Numbered from the stretch's first letter, positions 213 through 17,803 are shown. The stretch is DNA of 26,101 bases from Candidatus Bathyarchaeia archaeon (GCA_050012255.1 JBEKHN010000024.1:1-26101); one strand, 5' to 3'. Numbers and translations: made by a program. The notes: generated from the letters alone by a model not told the origin.

Positions 213-3038
213 ATGGCCGCGGCTGTTGCAGACAAAACAGATGTGATGTACGAAATCCTGTACAATCCGAAGTTCATACCTGTGCAGTCGCCGAAGGTGA
301 ACGTGAAGACAACGATTGTCGAGGGAAGAACCTCACATTTGATGAAGAACCATGCCACGGGAACGTACTATGACCTTGATGAGCTAACGAACTTGATCTG
401 GAATTTGACAGATGGCAAGAGGACAGTTAGCCAAATTGTGAAAGAGGTGCAGCGGCAGAAATCAGAAGTGCGGGAGAAAACTGTTTTTGAAAACCTTCTG
501 TTTCTTGCTGATGCAAACCTTCTGGAGGAAAGATTTGAGCAGAAACAGAAGAAGAGATTCAAAGTGGTTTCGCCTTTTGAAATGGATTTCACATTGATTA
601 GAAATAGCCACAATTTCATCCACTCTCTTCATTCTCGTATACGTCCAATCTTCAAGAGATGGTTGCTCTGGGCGACAATTGCGTTCATCATTGCAGGCGC
701 AGTGTTGTTTGCTCGTGAATTCGTTTCCATCTATGGGCAGAAGGCGAATTTTGAAATTTTGGGATCATCGGTAGTAGGCTTCTTTTTCTACTATTTTGCA
801 GCGTTGGCTCCTGTGATTGCGATTCATGAAATCGCTCATGCAATTACTCTTGTGCATTACGGCGGTCAAGCTGGTGAAATGGGAACAGGCCTATTCTATT
901 TCGGTCCCATGTTCTATACAGATACCACCGATGCTTGGGGATTGAGCAGAGGTGAAAGAATGAAGGTCTATTTGGCCGGAAACGTTTCCACTCTGCTGAT
1001 CGGGACTGCTCTTGTTTTTGTTCATCTCTTTGTTCAGATTCCAGGATTTGCCTCTCACATCGTTTTGATGGTGGCTTTCTACTGTTTTTCAATGTCCCTC
1101 ATGAACTTTGCTCCGCCCTTTGAGACTGATGGTTATTACATACTTTCAGATGCTGTGAGCATGCCGAACCTTCGCCACGACTCATATGGGTATTTGGGGT
1201 CTGTTATTAGACGAGTTTTCAGAAGACCCGTGAAGACGAAGGCTTCCAGCCTGAACAATGGAAAGAAGAGGGTTTTTCTGTTATTCGGACTTGTGTCAGT
1301 AGGTTGGATAGCATATATCATTTTTCAAACGTCAATCTTCCTAGTTTATATGGGTCAAGACGTGACGGCTGCCCTTGCAAACATTGGCGGAGCAATCTTG
1401 TCTTCTCAGGCGATACCATTAGCAGCAGTCGTGATCGCCGCTGTTTCCACGCTTTATTTTGGAATGCAGCTCACAGGATACAGCTTCGCCTTTTCGGCTG
1501 CAATGAAGAAAGCGATGGTGAAACCCCTGACGGTTGAAGCCATCAATGACAGGAACTTGGCTGTTTTTGCTTATCTCCCACCAGGGGTTCCAGAATCGCT
1601 CTCTGGTCGTTTAAGGTCAAGAATGGAAAAGATTGCGAAGAGGCTCACGCCAAAATATGAGATCAAGCAGGCTGGGCGCTCATGTCTTGCAATACTTAGA
1701 ATGGGTGGCACAAGTCTGGCCCTAGTCCAAATCAAGGAACACCTCAGACGGATTGAAAATGAATTTAACTCGACCTACGAGAAGCTTGTCGTAGGCCATA
1801 AGGACACGATTCAAAGGTCGGTGGGCGTCTATGCCCCGAACAAGATTGGCTTCACGAACAATCTCAAACAACTTGCAGTTGAATCAGTCGATGCCGGCAA
1901 TTCCACTGCTGTCAATATTGTTAGAGCGTGTGAAAATGCACAGAAAGAAACTCTGTTGTATCTTCTGCAATCAGCTAGCGGTACGGTTTGGACCATTGAG
2001 GTGCAGCCTTCACAGGAATATGAATTTGAAAAGGAGCTGGTTCCATCTATGCTTCTTGAAGATATGACTCTAACTGACCTGTACCGTGACACTGAGAACT
2101 TCAAGAAACGCACCGTTTACGGTTATGATTCACTCATGGTTCTGGCAACTGAAACTGAAATAGGTGTAAAGGAAGGGCTTGCTAGACCAGATGTGTGTCA
2201 GTGTCTGAGCGTGTTTGAGCCCCTCAAGAGTCGATTTGTTTTCGTAGGTAGGACTGAGCAGGTTGAAAATAAGATGGATGCACTTGCGCCTGTATTCATC
2301 GCGTACACGTGGTCCGGCTACGTGGACAATCTACTGTGCGAGACGTGTCTTAAACTTTCAACCATTACCAGGGCCCGTCTGCCCGGTGCTGAAGAGATAA
2401 AGCAAATGAGCATCGCAGAACTGGCAGTTCTGTCAAAAGATCTTTCGATGTTTGATGAAACTCAGGAGCTGGTTAACAAACACATGAAAAAGACTGAGGA
2501 ACAACTTGGTAAGATGAATGAAAGTCTGGCACAGCTGAAGGACGAGGCAAAAGGCTTTGCGGGTTTCAAGATTGGAAATCTGGACGCGGCGTTGCGTGTG
2601 AATACTGAGAATTTTGCGGCTATTCCCAGCAGGATTAAAGGGTTTCAGAAGGATTGGAATGCGCTGTGCAAACGAATCGAGAAGGTTCGATTACACGTCG
2701 ACCAAGCCTACAGCGAGAGGAAGCCTGTCATCGAAAAGAAGAAGCGTCACATGCTACTGATTTCTCCTTTCATGATCATGATGTCCGTTTTGCTTTTTGT
2801 TCTGGGCTTTCATCCCATGCTAGCATCATGGTCAGTGGCGTTCTTCTCAGTTGCAGCTGTTTTGCAGGTTGTTTATTGGGCATTTTTCTATCAAGCGTGG
2901 GGTTCACTTCATAAAGTCACGAAGTATTCAAGCCAACCTTTCAACGCAGTCCACATAGTCCTGCTATCCTTGACGGAAGCAGTTTTCGGGTATGTGACTA
3001 CGGAGGATGTTTTGACCCCGGTGGAAACTGCCCTCTAG
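213..3038 (+). CDS. PqqD/RRE domain + M50 (site-2-protease/YydH-like) membrane zinc metalloprotease with a long C-terminal soluble/coiled-coil region and terminal TM helices
   Basis: N-terminal YYDLDELTNLIWNLTDGKRTVSQIV..LLFLADANLL (PqqD pattern); HEIAH at aa 205-209; NFAPPFETDG at aa 298-307; multiple hydrophobic helices; purine-rich RBS before ATG. Confidence 0.88.
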   Translation: MAAAVADKTDVMYEILYNPKFIPVQSPKVNVKTTIVEGRTSHLMKNHATGTYYDLDELTNLIWNLTDGKRTVSQIVKEVQRQKSEVREKTVFENLLFLADANLLEERFEQKQKKRFKVVSPFEMDFTLIRNSHNFIHSLHSRIRPIFKRWLLWATIAFIIAGAVLFAREFVSIYGQKANFEILGSSVVGFFFYYFAALAPVIAIHEIAHAITLVHYGGQAGEMGTGLFYFGPMFYTDTTDAWGLSRGERMKVYLAGNVSTLLIGTALVFVHLFVQIPGFASHIVLMVAFYCFSMSLMNFAPPFETDGYYILSDAVSMPNLRHDSYGYLGSVIRRVFRRPVKTKASSLNNGKKRVFLLFGLVSVGWIAYIIFQTSIFLVYMGQDVTAALANIGGAILSSQAIPLAAVVIAAVSTLYFGMQLTGYSFAFSAAMKKAMVKPLTVEAINDRNLAVFAYLPPGVPESLSGRLRSRMEKIAKRLTPKYEIKQAGRSCLAILRMGGTSLALVQIKEHLRRIENEFNSTYEKLVVGHKDTIQRSVGVYAPNKIGFTNNLKQLAVESVDAGNSTAVNIVRACENAQKETLLYLLQSASGTVWTIEVQPSQEYEFEKELVPSMLLEDMTLTDLYRDTENFKKRTVYGYDSLMVLATETEIGVKEGLARPDVCQCLSVFEPLKSRFVFVGRTEQVENKMDALAPVFIAYTWSGYVDNLLCETCLKLSTITRARLPGAEEIKQMSIAELAVLSKDLSMFDETQELVNKHMKKTEEQLGKMNESLAQLKDEAKGFAGFKIGNLDAALRVNTENFAAIPSRIKGFQKDWNALCKRIEKVRLHVDQAYSERKPVIEKKKRHMLLISPFMIMMSVLLFVLGFHPMLASWSVAFFSVAAVLQVVYWAFFYQAWGSLHKVTKYSSQPFNAVHIVLLSLTEAVFGYVTTEDVLTPVETAL

Positions 3039-4143: not shown

Positions 4144-4208
4144 CGCGCGCGCTGCAAGAGAGGAGATATCTCCAGCCGCTTTCCTCTTTTTCTGTTTTCC
4201 AGCGCGCA

Positions 4209-4358
4209 TGCCTGTTCCTAAATTCGTTTGCAGAGTATTTTGTGCTTCCGGCTGTACTCCGTCTATGGATAGTGATGGACGTCGGGATACGATGGGCATC
4301 GTTCAGAAGGCGCAAATCAACTCTATCACACTTAAAAAGAGGAATTTAGGAACACGCT
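4209..4358 (+). mobile_element. 150-bp MITE, copy 1 (shares ends with the IS at 15255)
   Basis: Ends TGCCTGTTCCTAAATT ... AATTTAGGAACACGCT; flanking 8-mers AGCGCGCA (4201-4208) and AGCGCGCT (4359-4366); recurs at 11801 and 26001. Confidence 0.92.
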
Positions 4359-4477
4359 AGCGCGCTCTGCTACAAAGCAGTCTGGAATAGACTGAAACTT
4401 GGAAACAGTCGTACGCGGGAGTTGCCGTTCCCAGACTGTAATTTATACCGAAATTTCCCTTTTCTGTTAGATTGCAT

Positions 4478-4495
4478 GCCGCTGGGATTTGAACC
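4478..4495 (-). other. tRNA 3'-end-like remnant (possible att-site relic), not a complete tRNA
   Basis: Minus strand GGTTCAAATCCCAGCGGC (T-loop plus 3' stems); T-stem pairs poorly and the 5' part is replaced by the GC motif at 4505. Confidence 0.3.
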
Positions 4496-4671
4496 GGACC
4501 TCAAGCGCGCGCGCTTGCTCAACGCAGCGACTTTTGCTACTGCCATCATCAACGTTAACACTGTGGAGAATTACACGGTGAATGATTAAGGAGATGGGTC
4601 AAAACCGCCGTCGGGAAATCGTCGGCGAAAAGCTATAAGGCAAACCACAGATGTTGCAATAGGTGAGCTAA

Positions 4672-4839
4672 TTGCTGAAATGTCCAAGCTGCGGTTCTGA
4701 TGATACATACTATCGCCAAACAACATCTAAAGGAGATGAATACGAATGCCGCAAATGCAGCAACACGTTTACAGAGAAAGCTCCAGGCTTCCGTGCTCCT
4801 TCACCAGTTTCCACAGCGACTGAAGGAAGCAAGACATGA
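4672..4839 (+). CDS. 55-aa zinc-ribbon protein (not in the ORF track)
   Basis: RBS AGGTGA at 4661, TTG start, MLKCPSCGSDDTYYRQTTSKGDEYECRKCSNTF...*; two CxxC pairs. Confidence 0.75.
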   Translation: MLKCPSCGSDDTYYRQTTSKGDEYECRKCSNTFTEKAPGFRAPSPVSTATEGSKT

Positions 4840-4945
4840 ACTTCATGGTGCTCGTGAGCTTTCTCGCAGAACAGGCATATCTGCTGATGTTATCTGCGGC
4901 TATTTGAAATTGCTGGATTTGGAGCCTGAGGTTCAGGCGGCTCCG
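4838..4945 (+). pseudogene. ParB/Spo0J-like HTH fragment
   Basis: HGARELSRRTGISADVICGYLKLLDLEPEVQ; ends at palindrome GTGCGCGCAC 4946-4955. Confidence 0.5.
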
Positions 4946-4955
4946 GTGCGCGCAC

Positions 4956-4969
4956 TTTAGGAACGCGCA
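4956..4969 (-). mobile_element. Solo terminal inverted repeat remnant of the IS/MITE family
   Basis: TTTAGGAACGCGCA versus TTTAGGAACACGCA at 21946-21959 (13/14). Confidence 0.65.
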
Positions 4970-4973
4970 TAAT

Positions 4974-5021
4974 TTACCATTCTTCTTCTTCGAAGTCTTC
5001 TTCTTCATCTTCATCTGTCAT
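4974..5021 (-). CDS. 15-aa acidic micro-peptide MTDEDEEEDFEEEEW
   Basis: Strong GGAGGTG RBS just upstream of the ATG (5021); TAA stop. Confidence 0.5.
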   Translation of the reverse strand: MTDEDEEEDFEEEEW

Positions 5022-5200
5022 TCTTTTCCACCTCCATGCCTTTCCAGTGCGTAGTGAGAACATACATGAAATCTTTAAGGATTATTATGCGTCAGTTGTC
5101 AAGTATAGATTCAGGATCAAGTTAATGTTGAGCGTGCGCCCGAGATCGGGTTCACGGTTCACACATTAAATAGTAGGCTGCGCGCGGTTATAGGTAGACG

Positions 5201-5308
5201 ATGAGAATGATTGAAGAACCTAATTTTGACGATGATGAACCGTGGCTAGATGACGATGAAGACCAAGATGAACCGCAAGAACCAATTGAAGGGACTGAAG
5301 AGCCATAG
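5201..5308 (+). CDS. 35-aa acidic peptide MRMIEEPNFDDDEPWLDDDEDQDEPQEPIEGTEEP
   Basis: Open frame ATG 5201 to TAG 5308, lying between GC motifs at 5180 and 5364; strong D/E codon bias. Confidence 0.5.
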   Translation: MRMIEEPNFDDDEPWLDDDEDQDEPQEPIEGTEEP

Positions 5309-5520
5309 TTGAAAAACAGCAATGCTAGTACTGTTTCACACTTCTTTAGTCATTAATCTGTAAGCGCGCGCGGTCAATCGATAACCCGCTAATTTTTAGC
5401 GTGTTTCAACCCCATCTCCCAGCACCTCCATATTGAAAAAGCTGCGTCTTTTTGACGGATAGCTGATCCACGATGACCCATTGACGCGTGCGATTTGGTT
5501 TGGCTGCTGTCAAGACAGGG

Positions 5521-6259
5521 TTATGGGTAGTGCTGGTTGAAGTGGCCTGAAAGTATTATGGCGTCATAGATGTCAACAGTGCCGTCGCCGTTTATGTCTG
5601 CATTAGGATTCCACTTTGGACTGCCTGGACTGGAGTTGAAGGCGCCAGCCAGTATTATGGCGTCGTAGATGTCCACAGTGCCATCGCCGTTTATGTCGCC
5701 GGGGATGCCCACGTAGATCGTGCCGCCCGTCAGGTTGTTGTCGGCGGTGTTTGTTTCGCCTTGAACAGGCCAAGCGTAGGCGCTTATCGTGTAGTTGCCC
5801 TTAGCAATGCCGGTGGTGTTCCAGGTGAAGGTTATGGTGGTGGAGTTTCCGCTTGACAGGGTGACGTTTTGTGATGCTATGATGGTTGTGTTGGCGTATG
5901 CTGTAACATTGGAGGTTTCAGCGGAGTCGCCTACGTCTGCGGCTGTAACGTTGATACTCATGGAACATCCGCTTCCAACAACACTTTTTGAAGTGATGAC
6001 TCCCTCAATTGATACGTCATGGTTCGCTGATGAAGGACCGAAAGCATAGATTTTGCCATCCGTTGATCCTACGTAAACTACTTCGTTGACTACAACAGGA
6101 GAAGAATACACCCAGTAACCTGTCGTGTAGCTCCAAACATACGATCCGGTAGTAGCGTTCAGGCAGTAAACCTTCCCATCATTCCAATACCCTGATCCTA
6201 CGTAGATCAGACCACCAACAACGGCAGGAGAAGAATACACGTCATAGCCACCTGTCGTA
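5521..6259 (-). pseudogene. 5'-truncated PQQ-like beta-propeller + CARDB/Ig + dockerin protein
   Basis: VYSSPAVVGGLIYVGS / VYSSPVVVNEVVYVGS repeats, HDVSI..NVTLSSGNSTTITFTWNT, twin GDINGDGTVDIYD; similarity starts abruptly at the GC motif 6260-6269. Confidence 0.85.
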
Positions 6260-6270
6260 GCGCGCGCGCT

Positions 6271-6429
6271 GATTGGATAATAATCGTCGAAGAGGCAAAC
6301 ACCTTCAAGAACGTGCCGGCATTCGCGAAATTTCTCTATGGAAGCAGGCATGTAGTCAGGAAGATGATAGCTATTACCCCTCAAACCGATGCCTTCACGG
6401 GGCTGGTTACACTTGCGACTTACCACTAG
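6271..6429 (+). pseudogene. C-terminal fragment of an FtsK/HerA-superfamily P-loop ATPase (not in the ORF track)
   Basis: DWIIIVEEANTFKNVPAFAKFLYGSRHVVRKMIAITPQTDAFTGLVTLATYH*: Walker B (IIIVEE), SRH arginine finger, downstream Q; bounded by GC motifs. Confidence 0.6.
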
Positions 6430-6447
6430 ACAGGGCATAGCGCGCGC

Positions 6448-6602
6448 GATATGCTAGGCGCAATGCCCAAAAACGATGTCCACGTGTTCGGCGGTCACAC
6501 CTTGAACAGTCTGAAAGCAATGTTTTCCCGGTCAAGGCGCAGATTGGCTGTTAAGCTACAGAATCCCCGGCTCCTAGACATCCACTTTCACTCGCTACGC
6601 CA
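6448..6602 (+). pseudogene. Internal fragment of a tyrosine recombinase/integrase
   Basis: MLGAMPKNDVHVFGGHTLNSLKAMFSRSRRRLAVKLQNPRLLDIHFHSLR (HxLR box II), cut just after by the GC motif. Confidence 0.8.
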
Positions 6603-6611
6603 GCGCGCGCG

Positions 6612-6648
6612 CCTCCTTTTTTTTGTGTTTCGTTGATGCTTTGTATAC
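6612..6648 (-). promoter_or_regulatory. Orphan leader/RBS, related to 8677-8720
   Basis: Minus strand GTATACAAAGCATCAACGAAACACAAAAAAAAGGAGG, then GC motif. Confidence 0.5.
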
Positions 6649-6653
6649 GCGCG

Positions 6654-7940
6654 CTATATCGAAGGCTTGCGTCTGCCTGCCATCTTGGCAAGAAACGCAT
6701 AACCAACCAGAGTTGCGAACCCAATCAGTCCGAGGACTCCCCAAACAAACTTCTTATCCATCAACGAAGCAAACAAAGAAAAAGCAATCTGCGAACCCGC
6801 TGCCCCGCCTATTCCGAAGAATAGCCCAGTAATCGCCATATACCGTCCCCTCATGTCGGCAGGTGCAAGGTTGGCGACAAAACCCGAGCTAGCCGGAACA
6901 AACGTGATCTCCCCCAGCGTGAGTACGATGACGCCTATCAAGAACTGAGCGAAGCTTACAGCAAACATGAAATACGTGAAGCCCAAGGCATACAAGAACT
7001 GAGCAACTATGAAAGCTCTGGCAGCCCCTATTTTCACAGCTCCTTTTCTAATCGGTATTTGCAACGCAACAACCATCGCTCCGTTGACTGAGAAAAATGC
7101 GCCGAAAATGTAAGGCTCAAACCCAACGTACTGCGTGTAGACCGACAGCAACCCGTACAGCTGCGAGTAAACCAAATTCGTTAGCGCACCCATCAGACAG
7201 AAGAGAACGAAGACTCTGTCTTTGAATATTCCTGCAAACTGGGCAACAGACACCCCGCTACCTTCCTCAGGCGTGTAGGACTCCTTGATTGACAAGACGA
7301 GCCCACCTGCAGCAACCGCCGCAAACACGGCGGCATAAACAAAAAGTACAGGATAACCGTTCGTGCTTGCGATGAACCCACCGATCGGCGGCCCCACCAT
7401 CGTACCGATATTACCGATCATGTAACTCAACCCATACACCTCTTCGCGTCTTTCAGGGTTCACAAGATCGGCGACCATGGCGCTCTGGGCCGGATCAAAG
7501 AAAGCTCCAATGACTCCTGTGGCAGCATACAATAGTAGAAACTCGACGTAGCTGGTGACAAACGCGAAACAAGCAGTCAAAACGGCTAGGATGATCATCG
7601 AGAAAATCAGCATCCTTTTTCTTCCAAACCTGTCGCACAAGTTGCCAGTGACGAGCAGAGCAAACGTGTTTGCAAGACTGCCAATCATTATCATGAAACC
7701 AATGAGCGATGGGTCAAACTGTAGACCCCCGTTCACTCTGCTTCCGGTCAGAAACATTGCCAAGTAGGGGAAAGCTATGTTTCTCCCAAGTGAAAAGACA
7801 AACCCAAGACCAAGAAGGGCCCGAATCTGGAAGGGTAAACCCGTAAGCCCAACTCTAGAAGAGGCACGGAGAAACCACTGGCTTATCACTCTCGTAAGAC
7901 GTGAACTTCTGTACTGAGAGTTCATGATACAATTCATCAT
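6654..7940 (-). CDS. MFS transporter (MdtH-like drug/H+ antiporter type); start uncertain
   Basis: GNLCDRFGRKR motif A, GTMVGPPIGG motif C, about 12 TM segments; the stop TAG is part of the TAGCGCGCG motif. Confidence 0.92.
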   Translation of the reverse strand: MMNCIMNSQYRSSRLTRVISQWFLRASSRVGLTGLPFQIRALLGLGFVFSLGRNIAFPYLAMFLTGSRVNGGLQFDPSLIGFMIMIGSLANTFALLVTGNLCDRFGRKRMLIFSMIILAVLTACFAFVTSYVEFLLLYAATGVIGAFFDPAQSAMVADLVNPERREEVYGLSYMIGNIGTMVGPPIGGFIASTNGYPVLFVYAAVFAAVAAGGLVLSIKESYTPEEGSGVSVAQFAGIFKDRVFVLFCLMGALTNLVYSQLYGLLSVYTQYVGFEPYIFGAFFSVNGAMVVALQIPIRKGAVKIGAARAFIVAQFLYALGFTYFMFAVSFAQFLIGVIVLTLGEITFVPASSGFVANLAPADMRGRYMAITGLFFGIGGAAGSQIAFSLFASLMDKKFVWGVLGLIGFATLVGYAFLAKMAGRRKPSI

Positions 7941-8121
7941 TCTCCGTAGCGCGCGCGGGCACAGACAAATCTTGAATGGCCGTTAAGAACCTTTCTCTTT
8001 AACCAACGCGCGCGCTTATATTTTGTCAGCGCCTCCCACTGCGCTAGAGTTCCCGTCACTATCTGAGATTCATAACACACATTACATCATTTTCTATAGT
8101 TATCTAAGAGGAAATTTGAAG

Positions 8122-8295
8122 ATGGCTAATCGGCCGCTCGTGCTTAATTGTCCAGAATGCGGGAAACCATTGAAAAAGAACAAGGGCGAGGCTAGGTACA
8201 GCTGCGAAAACAGCGCTTGTTCCGTTATATCTGTTCGTCACCCTGACAAGCAAGGCATAATGGAGATACAATACGAGGCCAGAGCTCGCTCTTGA
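8122..8295 (+). CDS. Small zinc-ribbon protein, paralogue of 20732-20920
   Basis: MANRPLVLNCPECGKPLKKNKGEARYSCENSACSVISVR; ATG 8122 preferred over the track start at 8023. Confidence 0.65.
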   Translation: MANRPLVLNCPECGKPLKKNKGEARYSCENSACSVISVRHPDKQGIMEIQYEARARS

Positions 8296-8676
8296 GTGCG
8301 CACCGCGCTTCAGTCAATCAAGTTTCGCGCCGCACGTTGGACACCTAACCGGATAATTCTCTCCATTCATCATTTTCAATGCGCAACCAAAACAGATACA
8401 GATATTGCATTTTGGGCAATGATAGTTTGCTCCCTGAATACGAGTGCCGCACATATCGTAGAGTCTTGTCAAGCAACAGTCAGCCAACGGTTTCGCCCCT
8501 TCCTGATTAATGGAAAGCGCACCTTTGAAAGCTAAAAGGAATTTGCCGATGTGACCTAGATGCGACCGTGAGAGGACAGTTGAAGTGAAGGAATGGCAAG
8601 TTCTTTTTTCTCTAGGTCATAGTTTCGATGTGAATTTCATATTATGAAACCTTATACACTTGTATGGCGCGCGCGC

Positions 8677-8720
8677 CATAACCTCCGTTTTTAGTGTACC
8701 TCGTTGATGCTTTTGTATAC
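8677..8720 (-). promoter_or_regulatory. Orphan leader + RBS + ATG cut at a GC motif
   Basis: Minus strand GTATACAAAAGCATCAACGAGGTACACTAAAAACGGAGGTTATG, then GCGCGCGCGC. Confidence 0.55.
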
Positions 8721-8762
8721 AGACTTTACATTTGTCAATCTTCTGGATGTTTCCAGAATCTG

Positions 8763-8804
8763 GTTATGCGATAGATGTTATGCGATAGATGTTATGCGAT
8801 AGAT
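8763..8804 (+). repeat. 14-bp tandem repeat x3
   Basis: GTTATGCGATAGAT x3, perfect. Confidence 0.95.
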
Positions 8805-8865
8805 TGAGCTAGGTTCAACTATTTCAGAAAGTCTATTTTTCGATCGAGCGACCGGGGCGTTTTGA

Positions 8866-9342
8866 TTACTTGAGAAGTTCTGTGGCTTTTTCGATGGCAA
8901 ACCTAATTCGTTCTGTGCATGCATAGTCATGCACACTTCTGTAATACTCTTTGAATCCTTCAGCAGTCTTAATGTCAAGACCAGTGAGCTCTCGGCATGA
9001 TGTGGCTCCAAATCTTTCCTTGAAAACTCTGATGAACTCGTCCACCTTTGACCAAGTAGCTTGTGGGTTTTCAACATTGCTTTTTCTACCGTACTTGATT
9101 CCGATGGCCATGGCTACGCCTGATATTGATCCGCAAGTAAGTCCGTTCAACGAAAAACCAGCACCAACACCAGTGGCTATCTTCGGGATCAATTCTGATC
9201 TGACACCTAAGAATTCAGCAAGCGGAAGAAGAACGCTTTCACAACAATTGTATGGCCGACCTTCAGGGAAGTTGGCTGGCCTTTGCTGGAAATTCTTAAC
9301 AGCTTCCTCCTGAAGATTTTTCACGATTGACAAGGAAAACAA
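8866..9342 (-). CDS. C-GCAxxG-C-C family putative redox-active protein
   Basis: YNCCESV, GVGAGF..GLTCGSISG, FGATSCREL, terminal C. Confidence 0.88.
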   Translation of the reverse strand: MFSLSIVKNLQEEAVKNFQQRPANFPEGRPYNCCESVLLPLAEFLGVRSELIPKIATGVGAGFSLNGLTCGSISGVAMAIGIKYGRKSNVENPQATWSKVDEFIRVFKERFGATSCRELTGLDIKTAEGFKEYYRSVHDYACTERIRFAIEKATELLK

Positions 9343-9399
9343 CCCTCTTCAGAAAATTGGCCGCGTGGTTTTCAGACGTTTGGAAATACGAAGATCGCT

Positions 9400-9675
9400 T
9401 TATCTTCGCAACTTTCTTGCTTCTTCTTGTGGAATGGCAACCAGTGTTTCTGTTGCAGCCTTGTCAGAGAACATCATTCCGGCCATCATAGCTTCCTTTT
9501 CGCTTGGAGCTTCATAAAGTATCACCATGTCGTATCGCCTAAGCGTGTTCAGAACCTGATGTATTTTAATGCCTGCAGGCGGATGTTTCATAAACTTTTC
9601 AGATTTCTTACTGAATTCCTCGTCAACTGCTCCTCTCATCTTGGCTAATACAACGAATAACATTATCACACCCAC
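9400..9675 (-). CDS. GYD-domain protein
   Basis: TLRRYDMVILYEAPSEKEA..TETLVAIP (G of GxYD replaced by R). Confidence 0.82.
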   Translation of the reverse strand: MGVIMLFVVLAKMRGAVDEEFSKKSEKFMKHPPAGIKIHQVLNTLRRYDMVILYEAPSEKEAMMAGMMFSDKAATETLVAIPQEEARKLRR

Positions 9676-9764
9676 TTGATTGTATATGCTTCAGCATTTT
9701 AGATTTTCCGTCGCACGTACACATAATGCCGCAACTATTCGGGCGGTATAGCGCGCGCTTCATG

Positions 9765-10013
9765 CTAATGTGCACTGGCTATGAGCTTTTTGAGTTCTTC
9801 AATGAATTGGTCTTGGGCCACTATGTGACAAGCATGTCCATCGGGCAAAATGATTACCTTGGGATTTGACTCCAACACCTTCGAAAGCAAGTCCACTATG
9901 CCAGGGTTTTCTCCGACCGAATCCTTTCCCTTGATCAACAAAACAGGCTTGTCACGAAGTAATTGCAGTCGAGCAACGTCATCCGTGTGCTCTATCACCG
10001 TGTGAAGACTCAA
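9765..10013 (-). pseudogene. C-terminal fragment of an alpha/beta hydrolase
   Basis: PVLLIKGKDS..VIILPDGHACHI..DQFIEELKKLI; no nucleophile elbow; fills the interval between GC motifs 9751 and 10016. Confidence 0.7.
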
Positions 10014-10084
10014 GAGCGCGCGCGCAATAAATGAGTGTTGAATACAATGCTCAATGTGATGCCTGAATATTTGGGTGGAGCAGG

Positions 10085-10807
10085 ATGAACAAACTAGTAG
10101 CCGTAGTCATTGCGATAATTGTAGTTGCTGCAGTTGTCATTGGAGCTGTTTCTTACTACAGCCTTACACAGAAGAGTAAGGAATTGCCAACAAGCACTGA
10201 ACACGTGGGTGGCAAATACAATGTTACACTCAGTTTCTTCAACAGCAGTGGAGCCCAAATGGAATATACAGATGAAACTGGAAGCCATTCGGGTTTCATA
10301 ATTTTTGAACCTCAGATGAGGACTGGTTTGGATTGGATCAAGAATGCCACACCCGAAAACGCAGTGTTTCTGTGCTGGTGGGATTATGGCCACATGATCA
10401 AAGGCTACGCCGAAAGAAGCGTCGTCGCTCGAAATCCCTCACACGAGTGGATAAACATGATTGCAGAGCCGTGGCGCTCTCAAGTAACCGAGTTTGATCC
10501 AAACGAAAAGATCGTGGACATCGCCAAGGCCCTGACGACAAGCAATTCTACCGAGACGTTGCAGACTATGCAGAAATATGGTGCTACATATGTTGTCGTT
10601 TACAAGGATGATTTGCTCAAATCATCCTGGATGTACAAAGTCGCCGGGTTGGATCCGCCCACTCAATACGTAACGTACCAGAATTCTACTTACACATTCA
10701 CCGATGCTGGAATGAACACAATGATCTCCAGGCTTCTGGACAACAGAGACACAGGCCTCACCCTAGCCTACCAAGATGCCGTGATGAAAGTCTACGAGAA
10801 AGACTAG
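10085..10807 (+). CDS. Membrane-anchored stand-alone STT3/AglB C-terminal core-domain protein
   Basis: One N-terminal TM; LDWIKNATPENAVFLCWWDYGHMI; YGATYVVV..DLLK (DK-like motif). Confidence 0.85.
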   Translation: MNKLVAVVIAIIVVAAVVIGAVSYYSLTQKSKELPTSTEHVGGKYNVTLSFFNSSGAQMEYTDETGSHSGFIIFEPQMRTGLDWIKNATPENAVFLCWWDYGHMIKGYAERSVVARNPSHEWINMIAEPWRSQVTEFDPNEKIVDIAKALTTSNSTETLQTMQKYGATYVVVYKDDLLKSSWMYKVAGLDPPTQYVTYQNSTYTFTDAGMNTMISRLLDNRDTGLTLAYQDAVMKVYEKD

Positions 10808-11056
10808 AAAGCGCGCGCGAGTGGCACACTGGGTAACACAACAGCTACGCTTACCGGCACGCAAGTCATTGTTCATCCTCAGGGCCGCATGATCCAAGTA
10901 AAGGTCAATCCCCCGAGATTTCCATTCTTACTTTCCCTATTTCAATTGGCCATAATTGCGCGGGCGCAACTCGAAGGAGAGAAGTTCTAGAAGAAAATAC
11001 CATATCTGTTAAGTATGGGTCCAAACAAAACCAACTTGCATAAAGGAGCATAAACA

Positions 11057-11752
11057 ATGATGAAACTCAAATTGTTGACTTTGACTCTAGTGCTTGCTAT
11101 ACTGATGCCCACAACTCTTCTGTCAACATGCAAAGCTCAGACAGAACAAGTGTCACTGAAGTTCAACGCGGTTGCTACAGGGGAATGCCTGGTGCTAATT
11201 GAGAGTATCCTCGGTCCTCAACCACCAAAAGCATTTTTCATAGCGCGAGGCGCGATTGCAATCAGCGGCTCCGCATTGGCCACCGAAGTTCCACCAAGCC
11301 AAGACGTCCCATTCCCATACTACATCACAAATGATGGTGTCAATGCGGTCGGTGCGATTTCCGCAAGAGGGGAGGGCCAAATGATCACTGCACACCTCTA
11401 CTCAGAAGGCGAAGTTAGCGGGCTATTTGCAAACTTAAATGACGCAGACTGGTTCTTTGCAGGAGCTCTGCCAGGGGGATCATTGACTCCATCGATGTCC
11501 TACGAGGGATTATACAAAGATTCCACAGGGGTTCACAAAGTATCTGGAAAAGCCGCGGTTCTTGCATGTCTGATGGGTGATCCTGGTTCCCAATTCTGGG
11601 GAATCGGAGCAATACTTTTGAAACCAGACGGCTCTCCGCTGCTGTCCATAGTATGGGCTCTCACTGACGTAACTCTAGGTCCAGGCGGCGCAATGGGCAC
11701 TCTACATGCTGCAAACCAATTCATACACTCCGTAAGGGTTAGAGCGCCCTAG
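11057..11752 (+). CDS. Secreted hypothetical protein
   Basis: AAGGAG RBS, signal peptide MKLKLLTLTLVLAILMP..CKA; pyrimidine tract after the stop. Confidence 0.75.
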   Translation: MMKLKLLTLTLVLAILMPTTLLSTCKAQTEQVSLKFNAVATGECLVLIESILGPQPPKAFFIARGAIAISGSALATEVPPSQDVPFPYYITNDGVNAVGAISARGEGQMITAHLYSEGEVSGLFANLNDADWFFAGALPGGSLTPSMSYEGLYKDSTGVHKVSGKAAVLACLMGDPGSQFWGIGAILLKPDGSPLLSIVWALTDVTLGPGGAMGTLHAANQFIHSVRVRAP

Positions 11753-11753
11753 C

Positions 11754-11779
11754 TTCCCTTTCTCTCTTTTTCTTTCTTT
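11754..11779 (+). terminator. Archaeal oligo-pyrimidine terminator
   Basis: TTCCCTTTCTCTCTTTTTCTTTCTTT directly after the stop. Confidence 0.5.
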
Positions 11780-11800
11780 GTCATGGGCAGGTAGCGCGCT

Positions 11801-11944
11801 AGCGTGTTCCTAAATTCCTCTTTTTAAGTGTGATAGAGTTGATTTGCGCCTTCTGAACGATGCTCATCGTATCCCGGCGTCCATCACTATCCATAGACGG
11901 AGTAAAGCCGGAAGCACAAGATACTCTGCAAACGAATTTAGGAA
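11801..11944 (-). mobile_element. MITE copy 2, inverted, with the last ~6 nt replaced by the GC motif
   Basis: 4 substitutions versus copy 1; preceded by AGCGCGCT; ends AATTTAGGAA|GCGCGCGCGC. Confidence 0.92.
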
Positions 11945-12024
11945 GCGCGCGCGCTACAGTGACATCATACAAATCAGAAGAATGCATAGTGTAGCAATTG
12001 AGATACGGTCTTTGTTCATTTCTT

Positions 12025-12531
12025 TCACCACGAGTAACCGTTCAGCGCAAAACCGCTTCCTACTTCGATATTTTGCAGTACTCCAACCACGTGCATATCA
12101 CCATGACCGACGAACTGGCCTTCAACAATCTGGTTGCCGTCAATTGTCGGATGCACGATGCGTGCCTTTGCCACTCCTTCTACGATCCTGCCGTTATCGA
12201 ATGTTATCACGAATTGCACTATACTCGTTCCTTGAGCATCATACAAACCATTTGGACCCAGCCTCGCCACAAGCATAATGGTCAAGTCTACTCTTCCAAT
12301 GCGATGATTGCCATATTGATCGCCGAACTCATCCGTCACAAAGCCCCATTGAGTTCCATCAAGTATGAACAAGTTCTCGTTGAATTCTACTTTGCCTCTA
12401 AAGTTTTCAGGAGCAGCATATACCTTCACAAAGAACATTGACTGATTAGGTGCAGCATTTGCCAGTGGCATCAACGTGCAGAACAACAAAAAAAATGTGA
12501 ATACTAGAATCTTTGATTTTGACATGATCAA
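12025..12531 (-). CDS. Secreted beta-rich hypothetical protein
   Basis: Signal peptide MSKSKILVFTFFLLFCTLMPLANA; GAGGT RBS upstream. Confidence 0.72.
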   Translation of the reverse strand: MIMSKSKILVFTFFLLFCTLMPLANAAPNQSMFFVKVYAAPENFRGKVEFNENLFILDGTQWGFVTDEFGDQYGNHRIGRVDLTIMLVARLGPNGLYDAQGTSIVQFVITFDNGRIVEGVAKARIVHPTIDGNQIVEGQFVGHGDMHVVGVLQNIEVGSGFALNGYSW

Positions 12532-12841
12532 AGCCGGTACCTCTTCTTGTCGTCGCCTGCATAAAAGCTCAACTGAAGTCAGTTAAAAGCTTTCAGAAAG
12601 TATCTTCTAGAACGGAATATCATCCACCTTAAAAGGCTGACGCGCGCGCTATTAACTAAGTAAGGTAATAGCGTAGAAACAAAAAGTTTCTTCCTTGCGC
12701 GCGCGCAAACAGCTAGCGCGTGCGAGTTTTCCCGCGGTAATAACTCACTTTGCGGTCTCTTGGTTCTCTTATCCGCTATCGCCAAGAGAAGAAGGGAGGC
12801 TATGGGTAATGTTCTAGGAAGTGGTCTGCCAATATTATGGG

Positions 12842-15220: not shown

Positions 15221-15254
15221 AATGCAGACTCAGCCTCAATGATCTGTGCACGCA

Positions 15255-16325
15255 TGCGTGTTCCTAAATCCGCTGAAGCGCAATAAGTTGAGTCCCGTAC
15301 CTCTTTTCTGGAGTTTATCAATGAAGGGATGCGAGACTCTTGAGACCTTGTTTGGCAAGGTCGATTTATCCTTTGTTGAGCCAGTGCTTAATGAGTCTTA
15401 CCACGTGGAAGGCTTTGTCGGCAGGCCGCCGAGGAAGCCGCATGGCGTCTTCAAGGCGCATCTGCCGAGAAGGATGAGGCATGTTTCGAGCGACAGAATG
15501 CTTGTGAGACAGTTGTGGAAGGATCTGCGGTTGAGGCGAATATGTGACTTAGAAGAAAGCGAGCCTCCATACGGGATAGCAGTGTTGTCCAGGTTCAGGA
15601 GGAAGGTTAGACCTGAAAGGTTGATGCGAATCGCTGACCACGCCATAGAAGTGCTTGTCAAGAAGTAAAGAATCAGGGGCGAGACACTAGCGTTGGATTC
15701 AACGTTCATCAAGGCCCACAGCCGCAGAAGCCTTGACGACCGCACGGCTACAGCGACCCTGAATCAAGGGTTGGAAGAGCAGTCAAGACGAGAGACTTGG
15801 GCTCAGGCTTCACTTAGCCGTGGACGCTAAGAGCGAATTGCCCGTCGCCATGACCGTGACCCCGGCAAACGAGAACGAGAAGAGAGACTCTCTTGAGTTG
15901 TTTGAGGAGGCGTCACGCCAAGTGAAGCTTTGGAGTCGCGCGTGCGTGGCTGACCCACAGTACGGTTCACAGAGCCTCAGGGAAGCAACGCTCAGGCAGG
16001 GATCTGTGCCGGTCATTCCGTACCCCAGAAATCAGCAGAAGGGCATCAAGGGCGTCCTCAGGATCGACAGAAGATTTAGGAGTCACGGATCCGAGCACCT
16101 CAGAAGGACATACAAGAAACGCGTCGGAGTCAAACGGGTCTCCAGAGGACTCAAGAACCTCGCGGGCTTAACCCAACACAACCTCTGAGGACTGGCCAAA
16201 ATCACGTTCCCCGCCCAACTCTGCCTACCAGCCAAACTACTCACAGTCCTAGCTGCGCTCAACACACACAAACCGAGCAAAACGAGAAGCATAAGATACT
16301 TCGCAACCTAATTTAGGAACACGCG
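15255..16325 (+). mobile_element. Defective IS5-family insertion sequence (ISH1-group-like), 1071 bp
   Basis: IRs TGCGTGTTCCTAAAT / ATTTAGGAACACGCG; flanking 8-mers TGCACGCA / TGCGCGCT; N-GC ends, ~1.1 kb size and 8-bp DR fit the ISH1 group as I recall it. Confidence 0.85.
15321..16311 (+). pseudogene. DDE transposase pseudogene
   Basis: GRPP, LALDSTFIKA, YSDPESRVG, LHLAVDAKSELPVA..TPANENE, VADPQY; stops at 15666 and 16186, frameshifts near 15745 and 15803, and the expected VER reads VKR. Confidence 0.88.
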
Positions 16326-16549
16326 TGCGCGCTTTGATCGAGTGTGCTGTGTGGAAGCCCTCCATTTGAGGGAAGGGTTAAGCGAAGCTTGAGATGCGAT
16401 AGACACGTGCAAATTCCTTGTCCTTATCCTGCTTCCAACCCCTTGAATGAAACCTGAATCCTGCTCCTTTTCCGAATCAGGTGTTAGAATCTCAGAGGGA
16501 TAAGTTATTTATGTCTATTCATCACTATTTTGTTTTTGGGGATGAGCGG

Positions 16550-17191: not shown

Positions 17192-17803
17192 CAGTCAACC
17201 CCCAGCATGACCCCGCATCAGACGAATGCGGCCTGGTAGAACTATGCAAATTCCTCTCAAAATCTCTTTCCCACGACCAGAGGACATGAGCCCATCAACA
17301 TACATACCGATCATCCATGTTCAAAAAGTCTCACATGAATACATAGGGTCACGATCAACACGCTAGGGAAGAGGGACAGGCGTTTCAGCAAGCTCTGAGC
17401 ATGGCGGATCAAACCAGAAGAAGGCGTGATCGCATAGTGCATCAAAAAGTTACTACCCCTGCCCAGACTCTCAGCCAAGCCCCAAGTACGTACTCGCCTT
17501 CAACCCCGCGCAAAGTCAGAGAGGCCTTGCCCAACGCCTACGTGCAGTACTAGTACCCTAGGGGGGAGGGGGAGGGTAAAATAGACGGGGCCAAAACGCG
17601 AACACAGGGATGTAGCGCTCACTGAGAATACAAGAGAAGCAGCTGAAAGATGAAATGAAAAGGCAAACAGATGCCAAGCCCAGCCGACGCACATGCCAAA
17701 TCGTCACACTGACAAATGGATACCTTCAACACACGAACTGGAAATTTCGACCTGACAAACCTGTAGCCCAAACCTAGCGCGCGAGTGTGAGGAAACGAGC
17801 GGT

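Follow-up and report, generated by a model that had tools for sequence, protein, structure and literature searches.

How do pieces of unrelated genes come to be stitched together by short, constant runs of alternating G and C? This question is raised by a 26,101-nt contig of a Candidatus Bathyarchaeia archaeon (GCA_050012255.1 JBEKHN010000024.1:1-26101), analyzed here over its whole length and called the window below. Between 6258 and 6612 it holds three such runs, the (GC)5 decamer GCGCGCGCGC at 6260-6269 and again at 6603-6612, and GCGCGCGCG at 6440-6448. They join the C-terminal (3’) part of a gene for a PQQ-like beta-propeller/CARDB/dockerin protein, cut upstream (5521-6259, minus strand; Pfam Beta-prop_ACSF4, PQQ_2, CARDB and Dockerin_1), an orphan piece of 170 bp (6270-6439), and an internal 154-bp piece of a tyrosine-recombinase (integrase) gene (6449-6602, plus strand). 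The answer that we tentatively put forward is that GC runs may be the remnants of GCGCGC-tipped ends of a TA-targeting, IS5-family group of insertion sequences (IS) and MITEs (miniature inverted-repeat transposable elements), left after element-mediated joining and subsequent loss of the element.

Contigs from independent sequencing runs carry the identical mosaic with zero mismatches, X2 over 6213-6710 (one 1-nt gap in a T run, otherwise as in the window) and X3 over 6262-6697, and the mosaic is therefore real DNA and no assembly chimera. Neither is it an isolated occurrence, as 21 of the 25 alternating-GC runs of at least 6 nt in the window lie within a motif-dense stretch at 4144-12706, and the decamer GCGCGCGCGC occurs seven times where 0.04 copies are expected, a number reached by none of 100 shuffles. 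The orphan piece has no relative by blastn or tblastn in its own genome, nor in a protein search of the genus or in Pfam with both of its open frames, and a set of 5.8 billion proteins returned the self hit alone. The open reading frame (ORF) at 5521-6438 runs through this piece by chance.

Intact relatives lack GCGC at all four cuts of and around 6258-6612. The intact homologue nearest to the integrase piece, a frame of 412 aa, lies in a related genome (G003:C6; 68% amino acid identity), and the DNA alignment to it reaches both runs and goes no further. On the plus strand the piece translates to ...NPRLLDIHFHSLR, stopping two bases into the His codon of the HxLRH motif. At this 3’ cut the window reads CTACGCCA followed by GCGCGCGCGC (over 6583-6612, ...CACTTTCACTCGCTACGCCA joined to GCGCGCGCGC, that is, HFHSLR and then CA), where the relative reads CTTCGCCA followed by TTGGAGG, and two paralogues from the window’s own genome (C13 and C6) have CAC TAC and CAT TGG (HY and HW after R). 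At the 5’ cut, GCGCGCGCGAT followed by ATGCTAGG stands against CTCCTCAAC followed by ATGCTAAA in the same relative. The PQQ junction, on the minus strand (GC)5 and then TACGACAGG (RA-TTG), was compared to 37 paralogous repeat units, whose similarity ends within 2 nt of 6260; these units read TGGAACTA followed by CACGACAGG, and in every one of the 37 GCGC is absent from the 10 nt opposite the motif.

A further cut lies downstream, where a 35-nt T-rich spacer (6613-6647; look-alikes lie beside the run at 8667-8676 and in contig C9) leads to a CGCGCGC run at 6648-6654 that cuts the 3’ end of an MFS transporter gene (6654-7940, minus strand; Pfam MFS_1, 1e-46), which has runs on both sides. The relatives’ genes end in ...CCGATATTGTCTATGGACAAATAG, whereas the window reads CGATAT followed by A GCGCGCG; the gene is cut 17 nt before its native stop and the junction A-GCGCGCG provides a new TAG. 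Over 16 metagenome loci with a related MFS gene, similarity to the window ends at ~6656-6667 and ~7998-8022 wherever the locus extends so far. Upstream of the MFS start, the run at 7949-7957 stands in place of 12-13 nt between conserved flanks (TGTGCC-CGCGCGCGC-TACGGAG in the window, TGTGC-TCATATTCGAAGC-TACGGAG in L020, CATAGTTGAAAC in L028). The run at 8007-8015, the outer edge of this MFS module, has the same position in L020 and L056, and past it the window and these two loci each carry different DNA. The orthologous MFS region of another genome of the genus, G009 (L002), contains zero GC runs of at least 6 nt and served as motif-free comparison. In L002 (G009:C23:27825-32123) the MFS orthologue itself is split over several overlapping frames, which may reflect a pseudogene or frameshift errors.

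A sequence-only reading of the window had held that the GC linker appeared to be added at breakpoints and was not native to the broken genes, and the absence of GCGC from the integrase, PQQ and MFS parents bears out the second of these points. It had further counted three parents without GCGCGC, which stands for the integrase and PQQ (0 of 37 units) and fails for the third, a MITE present in two copies, because this parent carries GCGCGC as the tip of its terminal inverted repeat. The letters quoted for the MITE copies were correct: copy 1 ends in ...AATTTAGGAACAGGCATGCGCGCT, and copy 2 in ...AATTTAGGAA GCGCGCGCGC T, with the junction of AATTTAGGAA and GCGCGCGCGC at 11935-11954. Intact copy 1, however, continues ...AGGAACAGGCATGCGCGCT, placing GCGCGC 7 nt past the cut.

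The same picture emerges from a comparison of 400 kb of a sister genome (G001), 92-95% identical, to the window’s own genome (G000, 2.35 Mb), in which most copies of the run coincide with the very point at which homology stops or at which 0.25-3.3 kb has gone. Among 63 runs of at least 8 nt in G001, 21 belong to DNA that G000 lacks, 26 find just one of their flanks there, and 2 have their flanks on different contigs. The remaining 14 are collinear, about five of them being conserved in place and six or seven standing where G000 has 0.5-3.3 kb of ordinary DNA. In 14 cases in which a single shared flank reaches the run, G000 lacks any GC run in some 9-10, carries the run joined to another partner in two, and has a partial GCGC in two or three. 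The MFS-related metagenome loci behave likewise, as alignments to non-identical relatives repeatedly end exactly at a run; at L025:11905 a run stands where eight relatives continue a reading frame, and at L037:2144 (GC)5 stands where relatives read GGACA followed by AGAATTCC.

A count of bases shared with the motif, suggested by the sequence-only reading, was made over the 56 motif flanks, of either G000 or G001, for which a homologous flank reaches the run in the other genome. The run was kept at 18 and different at 38. At these 38 flanks the partner matched the run over 0 nt (14 flanks), 1 nt (11), 2 nt (9), 4 nt (2), 5 nt (1) or 6 nt (1), against 0 nt (34), 1 nt (2), 3 nt (1) and 4 nt (1) in an opposite-phase control. 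Parental sequences thus have GCGC at the cut in hardly any case, but the joints do favor places offering G or GC: at least 1 nt is shared at 24 of 38 flanks versus 4 of 38 in the control. Because such 1-2 nt microhomology is enriched, the parental sequence is not wholly irrelevant to where a joint forms. Recombination between two pre-existing GC sites, which had been argued against, indeed fails to explain the junctions; in att- or attC-type recombination both partners would hold a core site beforehand, and here no more than 2 nt are in common with the run at 34 of the 38 flanks that differ, and the motif is missing from the parents of the integrase, PQQ and MFS pieces. The two genomes also differ by three indels of 2.2, 8.5 and 10.5 kb that are bounded by direct repeats (about 12-15 nt in two, similar AT-rich words in the third), lack GC runs, and look like att-type integrated elements.

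Genome-wide, G000 holds 201 alternating-GC runs of 8 nt, 123 of 9 nt, 63 of 10 nt (387 of 8-10 nt together) and 2 of 11 nt, with a sharp cap in length at 10 nt. Its 8-nt windows number 670, versus 51 expected from a first-order model, and its 10-nt windows 85 versus 2.9, so that a single short palindrome is strongly over-represented throughout the genome. The phase of the runs is fixed (GCGCGCGC 176 versus CGCGCGCG 25; 55 versus 8 for the 10-mers), an A precedes them in 63-66% and a T follows in 56-59%, and the sequence is random beyond one base to either side. The motif is thus a genome-wide element of the form A(GC)4-5T. About 80% of the 8-10 nt runs lie outside long ORFs, 17-28% being found inside ORFs of at least 150 aa, which make up 80% of the genome.

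In all 11 genomes of the genus AGCGCGCGCT is abundant, with 7-114 copies versus 0-4 for a reversed control, and it has at most one copy in each of the 20 other relatives first sampled. When motif-rich was defined as a minimum of 10 copies of AGCGCGCGCT and five times the control or more, 23 of the 251 genomes sampled from the class qualified, patchily distributed over families f1, f26, f35, f36, f27 and f29. Stretches of four genomes (G009, G004, G111 and G089) show the same spectrum, with a peak at 8 nt, hardly any run exceeding 10 nt (in that of G111, one of 11 nt and one of 13 nt) and the G...C phase; the A and T flanks were counted in G111 and G089. Full-text searches for iterated palindromes, for excision footprints or MITEs in archaea, and for the motif itself found no description of this GC-run motif. 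In the main text of PMC13343696, supplements excluded, a search by term found no mention of Bathyarchae, footprint or excision.

Where else does this sequence occur? The window contains two copies of a MITE and a degenerate element with the same terminal repeats. MITE copy 1 (4201-4366) has complete ends, A GCGCGC ATGCCTGTTCCTAAATTC ... GAATTTAGGAACACGCTA GCGCGC T, and copy 2 (11793-11954) is 97% identical to it, one end having lost 7 nt of the inner repeat and carrying (GC)5 instead of (GC)3. The degenerate element (15247-16333, plus strand) has three stops and the IS5-family domains DUF772 (15246-15668, 1.7e-9) and DDE_Tnp_1 (15820-16188, 2.3e-7); intact transposase frames of 329-341 aa are found in G009 and G003. 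The element is thus an IS5-family insertion sequence with MITE derivatives, probably TA-targeting, with terminal inverted repeats that begin with GCGCGC; their consensus in IS and MITEs is (T)A followed by GCGCGC-(AT/TA)-GC-N-TGTTCCTAAATT. G000 holds 105 copies of the terminal repeat, with A before the tip in 80 and the dinucleotide TA in 53, and many of its contigs end in such repeats. The GC run at the tip measures exactly 6 nt at 67 of 101 ends and 8-10 nt at 7. Full-length and miniature copies have these inverted repeats in common, as 46 paired elements of 160-1085 nt were found in G000 and the 400 kb of G001; 11 have TA on both sides and 27 are without target duplication. A 2-bp TA target duplication is a trait of an IS5 subgroup. 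Outside the genus, G111, of another family, carries 1.1-kb ISs with the same GCGCGCTAGC tip and a different inner repeat, and likewise has an intact transposase frame. At 4940-4965 the window also has a terminal-repeat-like word without GCGCGC tip (ATGCGCGTTCCTAAAG), followed at once by TGCGCGC, which looks like a collapsed or internally deleted MITE.

Solo runs and element tips have the same phase and the same A and T flanks, and some loci are allelic. Where G001 has a MITE of 194 nt, G000 reads A-GCGCACGC-A, and at another MITE locus it reads GCGCGTGC, so that at two loci an occupied allele exists at exactly the same site. These pairs are few (3 of 15 comparable ends, at two loci, with one-mismatch 8-mers in G000). 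Elsewhere, 692 nt of G000 ending in a MITE tip are represented in G001, next to the same flank, by only ATA-GCGCGCGC-T, and G001 has an insert of 605 nt that is bounded on one side by a full terminal repeat and on the other by GCGCGCGCG alone. Of the solo runs, 12% have a terminal repeat within 500 nt, versus 4% of random points, 11 of the 24 solos of G009 contig C18 fall within 21 kb next to its one IS, and in G111 17 of 31 listed solo runs lie between three IS copies. That the flanks of elements have often been replaced (the 27 of 46 without target duplication), and that MITE insertion needs no GC target, likewise speaks for an origin of the runs in element tips.

How might a tip be left on its own? 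Firstly, an element end would be joined to arbitrary DNA, near or distant, either through strand transfer by the transposase (adjacent deletion, or moves of the composite-transposon kind) or through recombination between copies, truncating genes and bringing unrelated pieces together. Subsequently, the body of the element would be lost by excision and rejoining, or by deletion between the two self-complementary tips, with A(GC)3-5T left behind. If two palindromic 6-nt tips overlapped by 6, 4 or 2 nt, runs of 6, 8 or 10 nt would result, which would account for the cap at 10 nt. We infer these enzymatic steps, as well as the origin of all runs in this manner, and under the same tentative scenario 6258-6612 could be a scrapyard of several successive joining events. 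Of the two routes named by the sequence-only reading, linker addition or one-sided strand transfer from an existing motif, the latter agrees with this explanation, as the existing motif would be the GCGCGC tip of the IS5-family IS/MITE; linker addition as a separate process would be the less likely of the two.

Several observations weigh against this origin. Of 558 runs of 7-10 nt in G000, 294 have an odd length (171 of 7 nt, 123 of 9 nt) and 264 measure 8 or 10 nt, and odd lengths are not produced by joining two G...C tips; overlap predicts 6, 8 and 10 nt, leaving both the odd lengths and the mode at 8 unexplained. A T at position -2 is found at ~31% of solo runs versus 57% of element ends. 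Motif load and element load are unmatched, the number of AGCGCGCGCT copies and of terminal-repeat matches being 82 and 2 in G009, 56 and 2 in G008, and 39 and 0 in G004, and a transposase query found nothing in G002, G004, G005, G008 and G010. Within the class sample the transposase family is present in 8 of 23 motif-rich genomes versus 41 of the 228 others; it was found in none of the five f35 genomes, which have 13-131 motifs, and 26 of 53 f24 genomes have such transposases and no excess of the motif. Nine of the 23 motif-rich genomes have zero matches to the tip pattern, and no repeated word lies beside the GC runs in 390 kb of G009 and 342 kb of G089. Missing elements are weak evidence, since repeats are lost from metagenome-assembled genomes and terminal repeats stand at the ends of many G000 contigs, yet they are still a problem for this origin. 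Finally, excision was not seen directly, and no pair of MITE-present and scar alleles was found among the contigs of four sequencing runs, contigs being prone to drop rare variants and the parts of the stretch not covered by X2-X4 being uninformative on such pairs; the contig joints listed inside 4201-4366 are other members of the MITE family.

Known excision and deletion phenomena provide a partial precedent for remnants of element tips. Excision of Tc1/mariner elements, Sleeping Beauty and hAT elements in eukaryotes leaves footprints, a few terminal bases of the element between the copies of the TA target. The GC runs may resemble these in consisting of terminal bases, a likeness with which their phase and flanks agree and their many odd lengths do not, and local hopping would be in keeping with scars that cluster around a resident element. 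They differ in that the element is an archaeal one of the IS5 family, its excision is putative, and the scars of 7-10 nt mostly lack TA on both sides: TA on both sides is found at 4-7% of solos (7 of 176 of 8 nt, 4 of 55 of 10 nt) versus 0.24% for plain GCGC. Moreover, most runs are not simple empty sites, as they lie at junctions of unrelated DNA that resulted from deletion or rearrangement. In nearly precise excision of Tn10, a deletion by the host between short repeats inside the inverted ends leaves a small remnant, and in adjacent deletions by IS1 and IS903 element ends are joined to new DNA with removal of what lay between. The likeness here is that both ends of the GC-run element carry a direct repeat, since the tip GCGCGC is a palindrome. 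An archaeal genome with hundreds of constant GC scars at truncations and breaks in synteny would be a new variant of these footprint and IS-deletion phenomena.

Alternatively, the joining could be independent of elements, the host or some other activity using or building a self-complementary (GC)n tract as universal sticky linker at broken ends; we consider this less likely than an origin in element tips, but a serious rival that several observations fit. We are equally doubtful that, as this would entail, the IS and MITE tips resemble (GC)n because the elements acquired or exploit such ends. Put more broadly, and with the same reservation, several lineages of sediment archaea might join broken or foreign DNA with ends capped or bridged by an alternating-GC tract of at most 10 nt, stamping every rearrangement, deletion and gene-cassette border with A(GC)4-5T, while IS and MITE families merely carry or exploit the same ends. 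The identical spectrum (peak at 8, cap at 10, A...T flanks) in distant families where GCGCGC-tipped elements are scarce or undetected would follow, and the common odd lengths of 7 and 9 nt, the short in-place replacements (5 nt by 10 nt, 13 nt by 10 nt), the 7 nt lost from MITE copy 2 in exchange for a longer run, and the enriched 1-2 nt microhomology at joints all point the same way. Conversely, the runs have the constant G...C phase and the A and T flanks of element tips, allelic pairs of MITE and solo exist, and no candidate enzyme was found when Ku/LigD and ResT/TelK were looked for. If it were nonetheless true, it would be something new altogether.

Two candidates for such an enzyme deserve mention. 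G000 has a complete Ku/LigD operon for end joining of the bacterial type (C10:11503-14557, L126), encoding a LigD primase-polymerase (PrimPol), Ku, and a ligase fused to a 3’-phosphoesterase (PE) domain, and Ku is present in 8 of 11 genomes of the genus versus 1 of 20 others, but at the level of the class in 6 of 23 motif-rich genomes versus 70 of 251 overall, by which this link was rejected. In V(D)J recombination and non-homologous end joining, filler DNA and N and P nucleotides provide non-parental, palindromic bases at the joint; the GC runs are similar in lying exactly at the joint with short microhomology, and dissimilar in that their sequence and length are constant, rather than derived from the flanks or random, and that Ku/LigD presence is independent of the motif. 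Target sites of protelomerases (N15/TelK type) have a TACGCGCGTA core, and a TA-flanked alternating CG palindrome is indeed seen in, for example, TATACGCGCGCTATA at 6643-6657. Unlike these sites, the runs lack a long flanking palindrome, and the idea was dropped as no ResT/TelK (protelomerase) catalytic domain is found in G000.

Could A(GC)4-5T instead be a functional intergenic signal, such as a protein binding site, a Z-DNA-prone punctuation or a HIP-like palindrome, that doubles as a hotspot of breakage and illegitimate recombination? We regard this as improbable. It would agree with the depletion of 8-10 nt runs from ORFs of at least 150 aa, with the runs that flank genes on both sides in the window, with the run kept at 18 of 56 flanks between G000 and G001, and with the same run position being found with different partner DNA in several lineages. 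However, the long (ancestral) alleles have no run at either end of the segment that is missing elsewhere, the runs cut conserved frames (that of the integrase, the 3’ end of MFS, and an ORF that eight relatives retain at L025:11905), and of the 63 runs in G001 no more than about 5 have been kept in collinear context. Highly iterated palindromes of the HIP1 kind lie in coding and non-coding DNA alike and are kept in place among relatives. HIP1 itself (GCGATCGC) belongs to cyanobacteria (PMC6604393), and the GC runs are like it in being 8-nt, GC-rich, lineage-specific palindromes with hundreds of copies. In contrast to HIP1, they lie mostly outside long ORFs, turn over fast and are found at homology breakpoints. 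Nor do they resemble repetitive extragenic palindromes and bacterial interspersed mosaic elements (REP/BIME), which are imperfect hairpin palindromes of 20-40 nt, since the GC-run element measures 8-12 nt and has random flanks beyond one base to either side.

It is very improbable that the runs are target sites preferred by the IS/MITE family, with the terminal GCGCGC as a duplicated target. Elements are flanked by A...T as solos are, and 7 of 101 ends do carry runs of 8-10 nt, but the run is fixed at 6 nt at 67 of 101, and truncation of genes at runs is left unexplained. This explanation is largely refuted by empty sites in the sister genome without any GC run (AAGTAAGCACTGAC and CTTCTCCTAAGG; also 7 of 15 comparable ends), because of which GCGCGC must belong to the element and not to a duplicated target. 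An artefact of assembly, library or sequencing, a concern with any window from a metagenome-assembled genome, is refuted by identical junctions in contigs of independent runs and studies and by the same motif spectrum in 11 of 11 genomes of the genus and 23 of 251 of the class.

The remainder of the window adds further runs and genes. Long runs are also found at 4144-4152, 4505-4514, 5364-5372, 8667-8676, 9751-9758, 10016-10025, 10811-10819, 12641-12649 and 12697-12706, and they lie on both sides of the ORFs at 9765-10013 and 10085-10807. Directly adjoining the run at 8007-8015 is DNA (8046-8301) of a small zinc-ribbon ORF of 90 aa (8023-8295; DNA_ligase_ZBD-like, 2.5e-6), with copies of this DNA, 74-82% identical, at several sites of G001, G007, G009 and G004. 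A tRNA fragment considered at 4470-4504 was rejected, as ARAGORN found no tRNA in the window and Rfam nothing at gathering scores. The contig starts with a 36-nt unit in two perfect head-to-tail copies (1-72), which may be an effect of the assembly end or a tandem repeat, and a 941-aa ORF at 213-3038 has a PqqD-like domain (1.2e-5) near its N-terminus as sole match. Another repeat family of ~250 nt is represented at 17359-17621, with a fixed 3’ end ...GGGGGAGGGGGAGGGT...ACAGGGATGTAGCG, ragged 5’ ends and no GCGCGC tip; 17300-17800 gives 24 blastn hits in G000, its own copy included, and dozens in G001 and G007, presence or absence varies among these three genomes, and Rfam has no match.

What do the runs mean for these archaea? 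For annotation, they are a warning that ORFs reading through a run, such as that at 5521-6438, are fusions of unrelated pieces, and whichever explanation holds, the motif offers a practical means of spotting breakpoints, truncated genes and variable islands in these metagenome-assembled genomes. If the runs are not scars of elements, they would point to an undescribed DNA-joining chemistry. If they are, hundreds of past insertions, deletions and cassette shufflings would be legible from these genomes, through a kind of footprint of which, to our knowledge, prokaryotes offer hardly any example, and much of the variability among strains of a major uncultured group of sediment archaea would be explained by this record.

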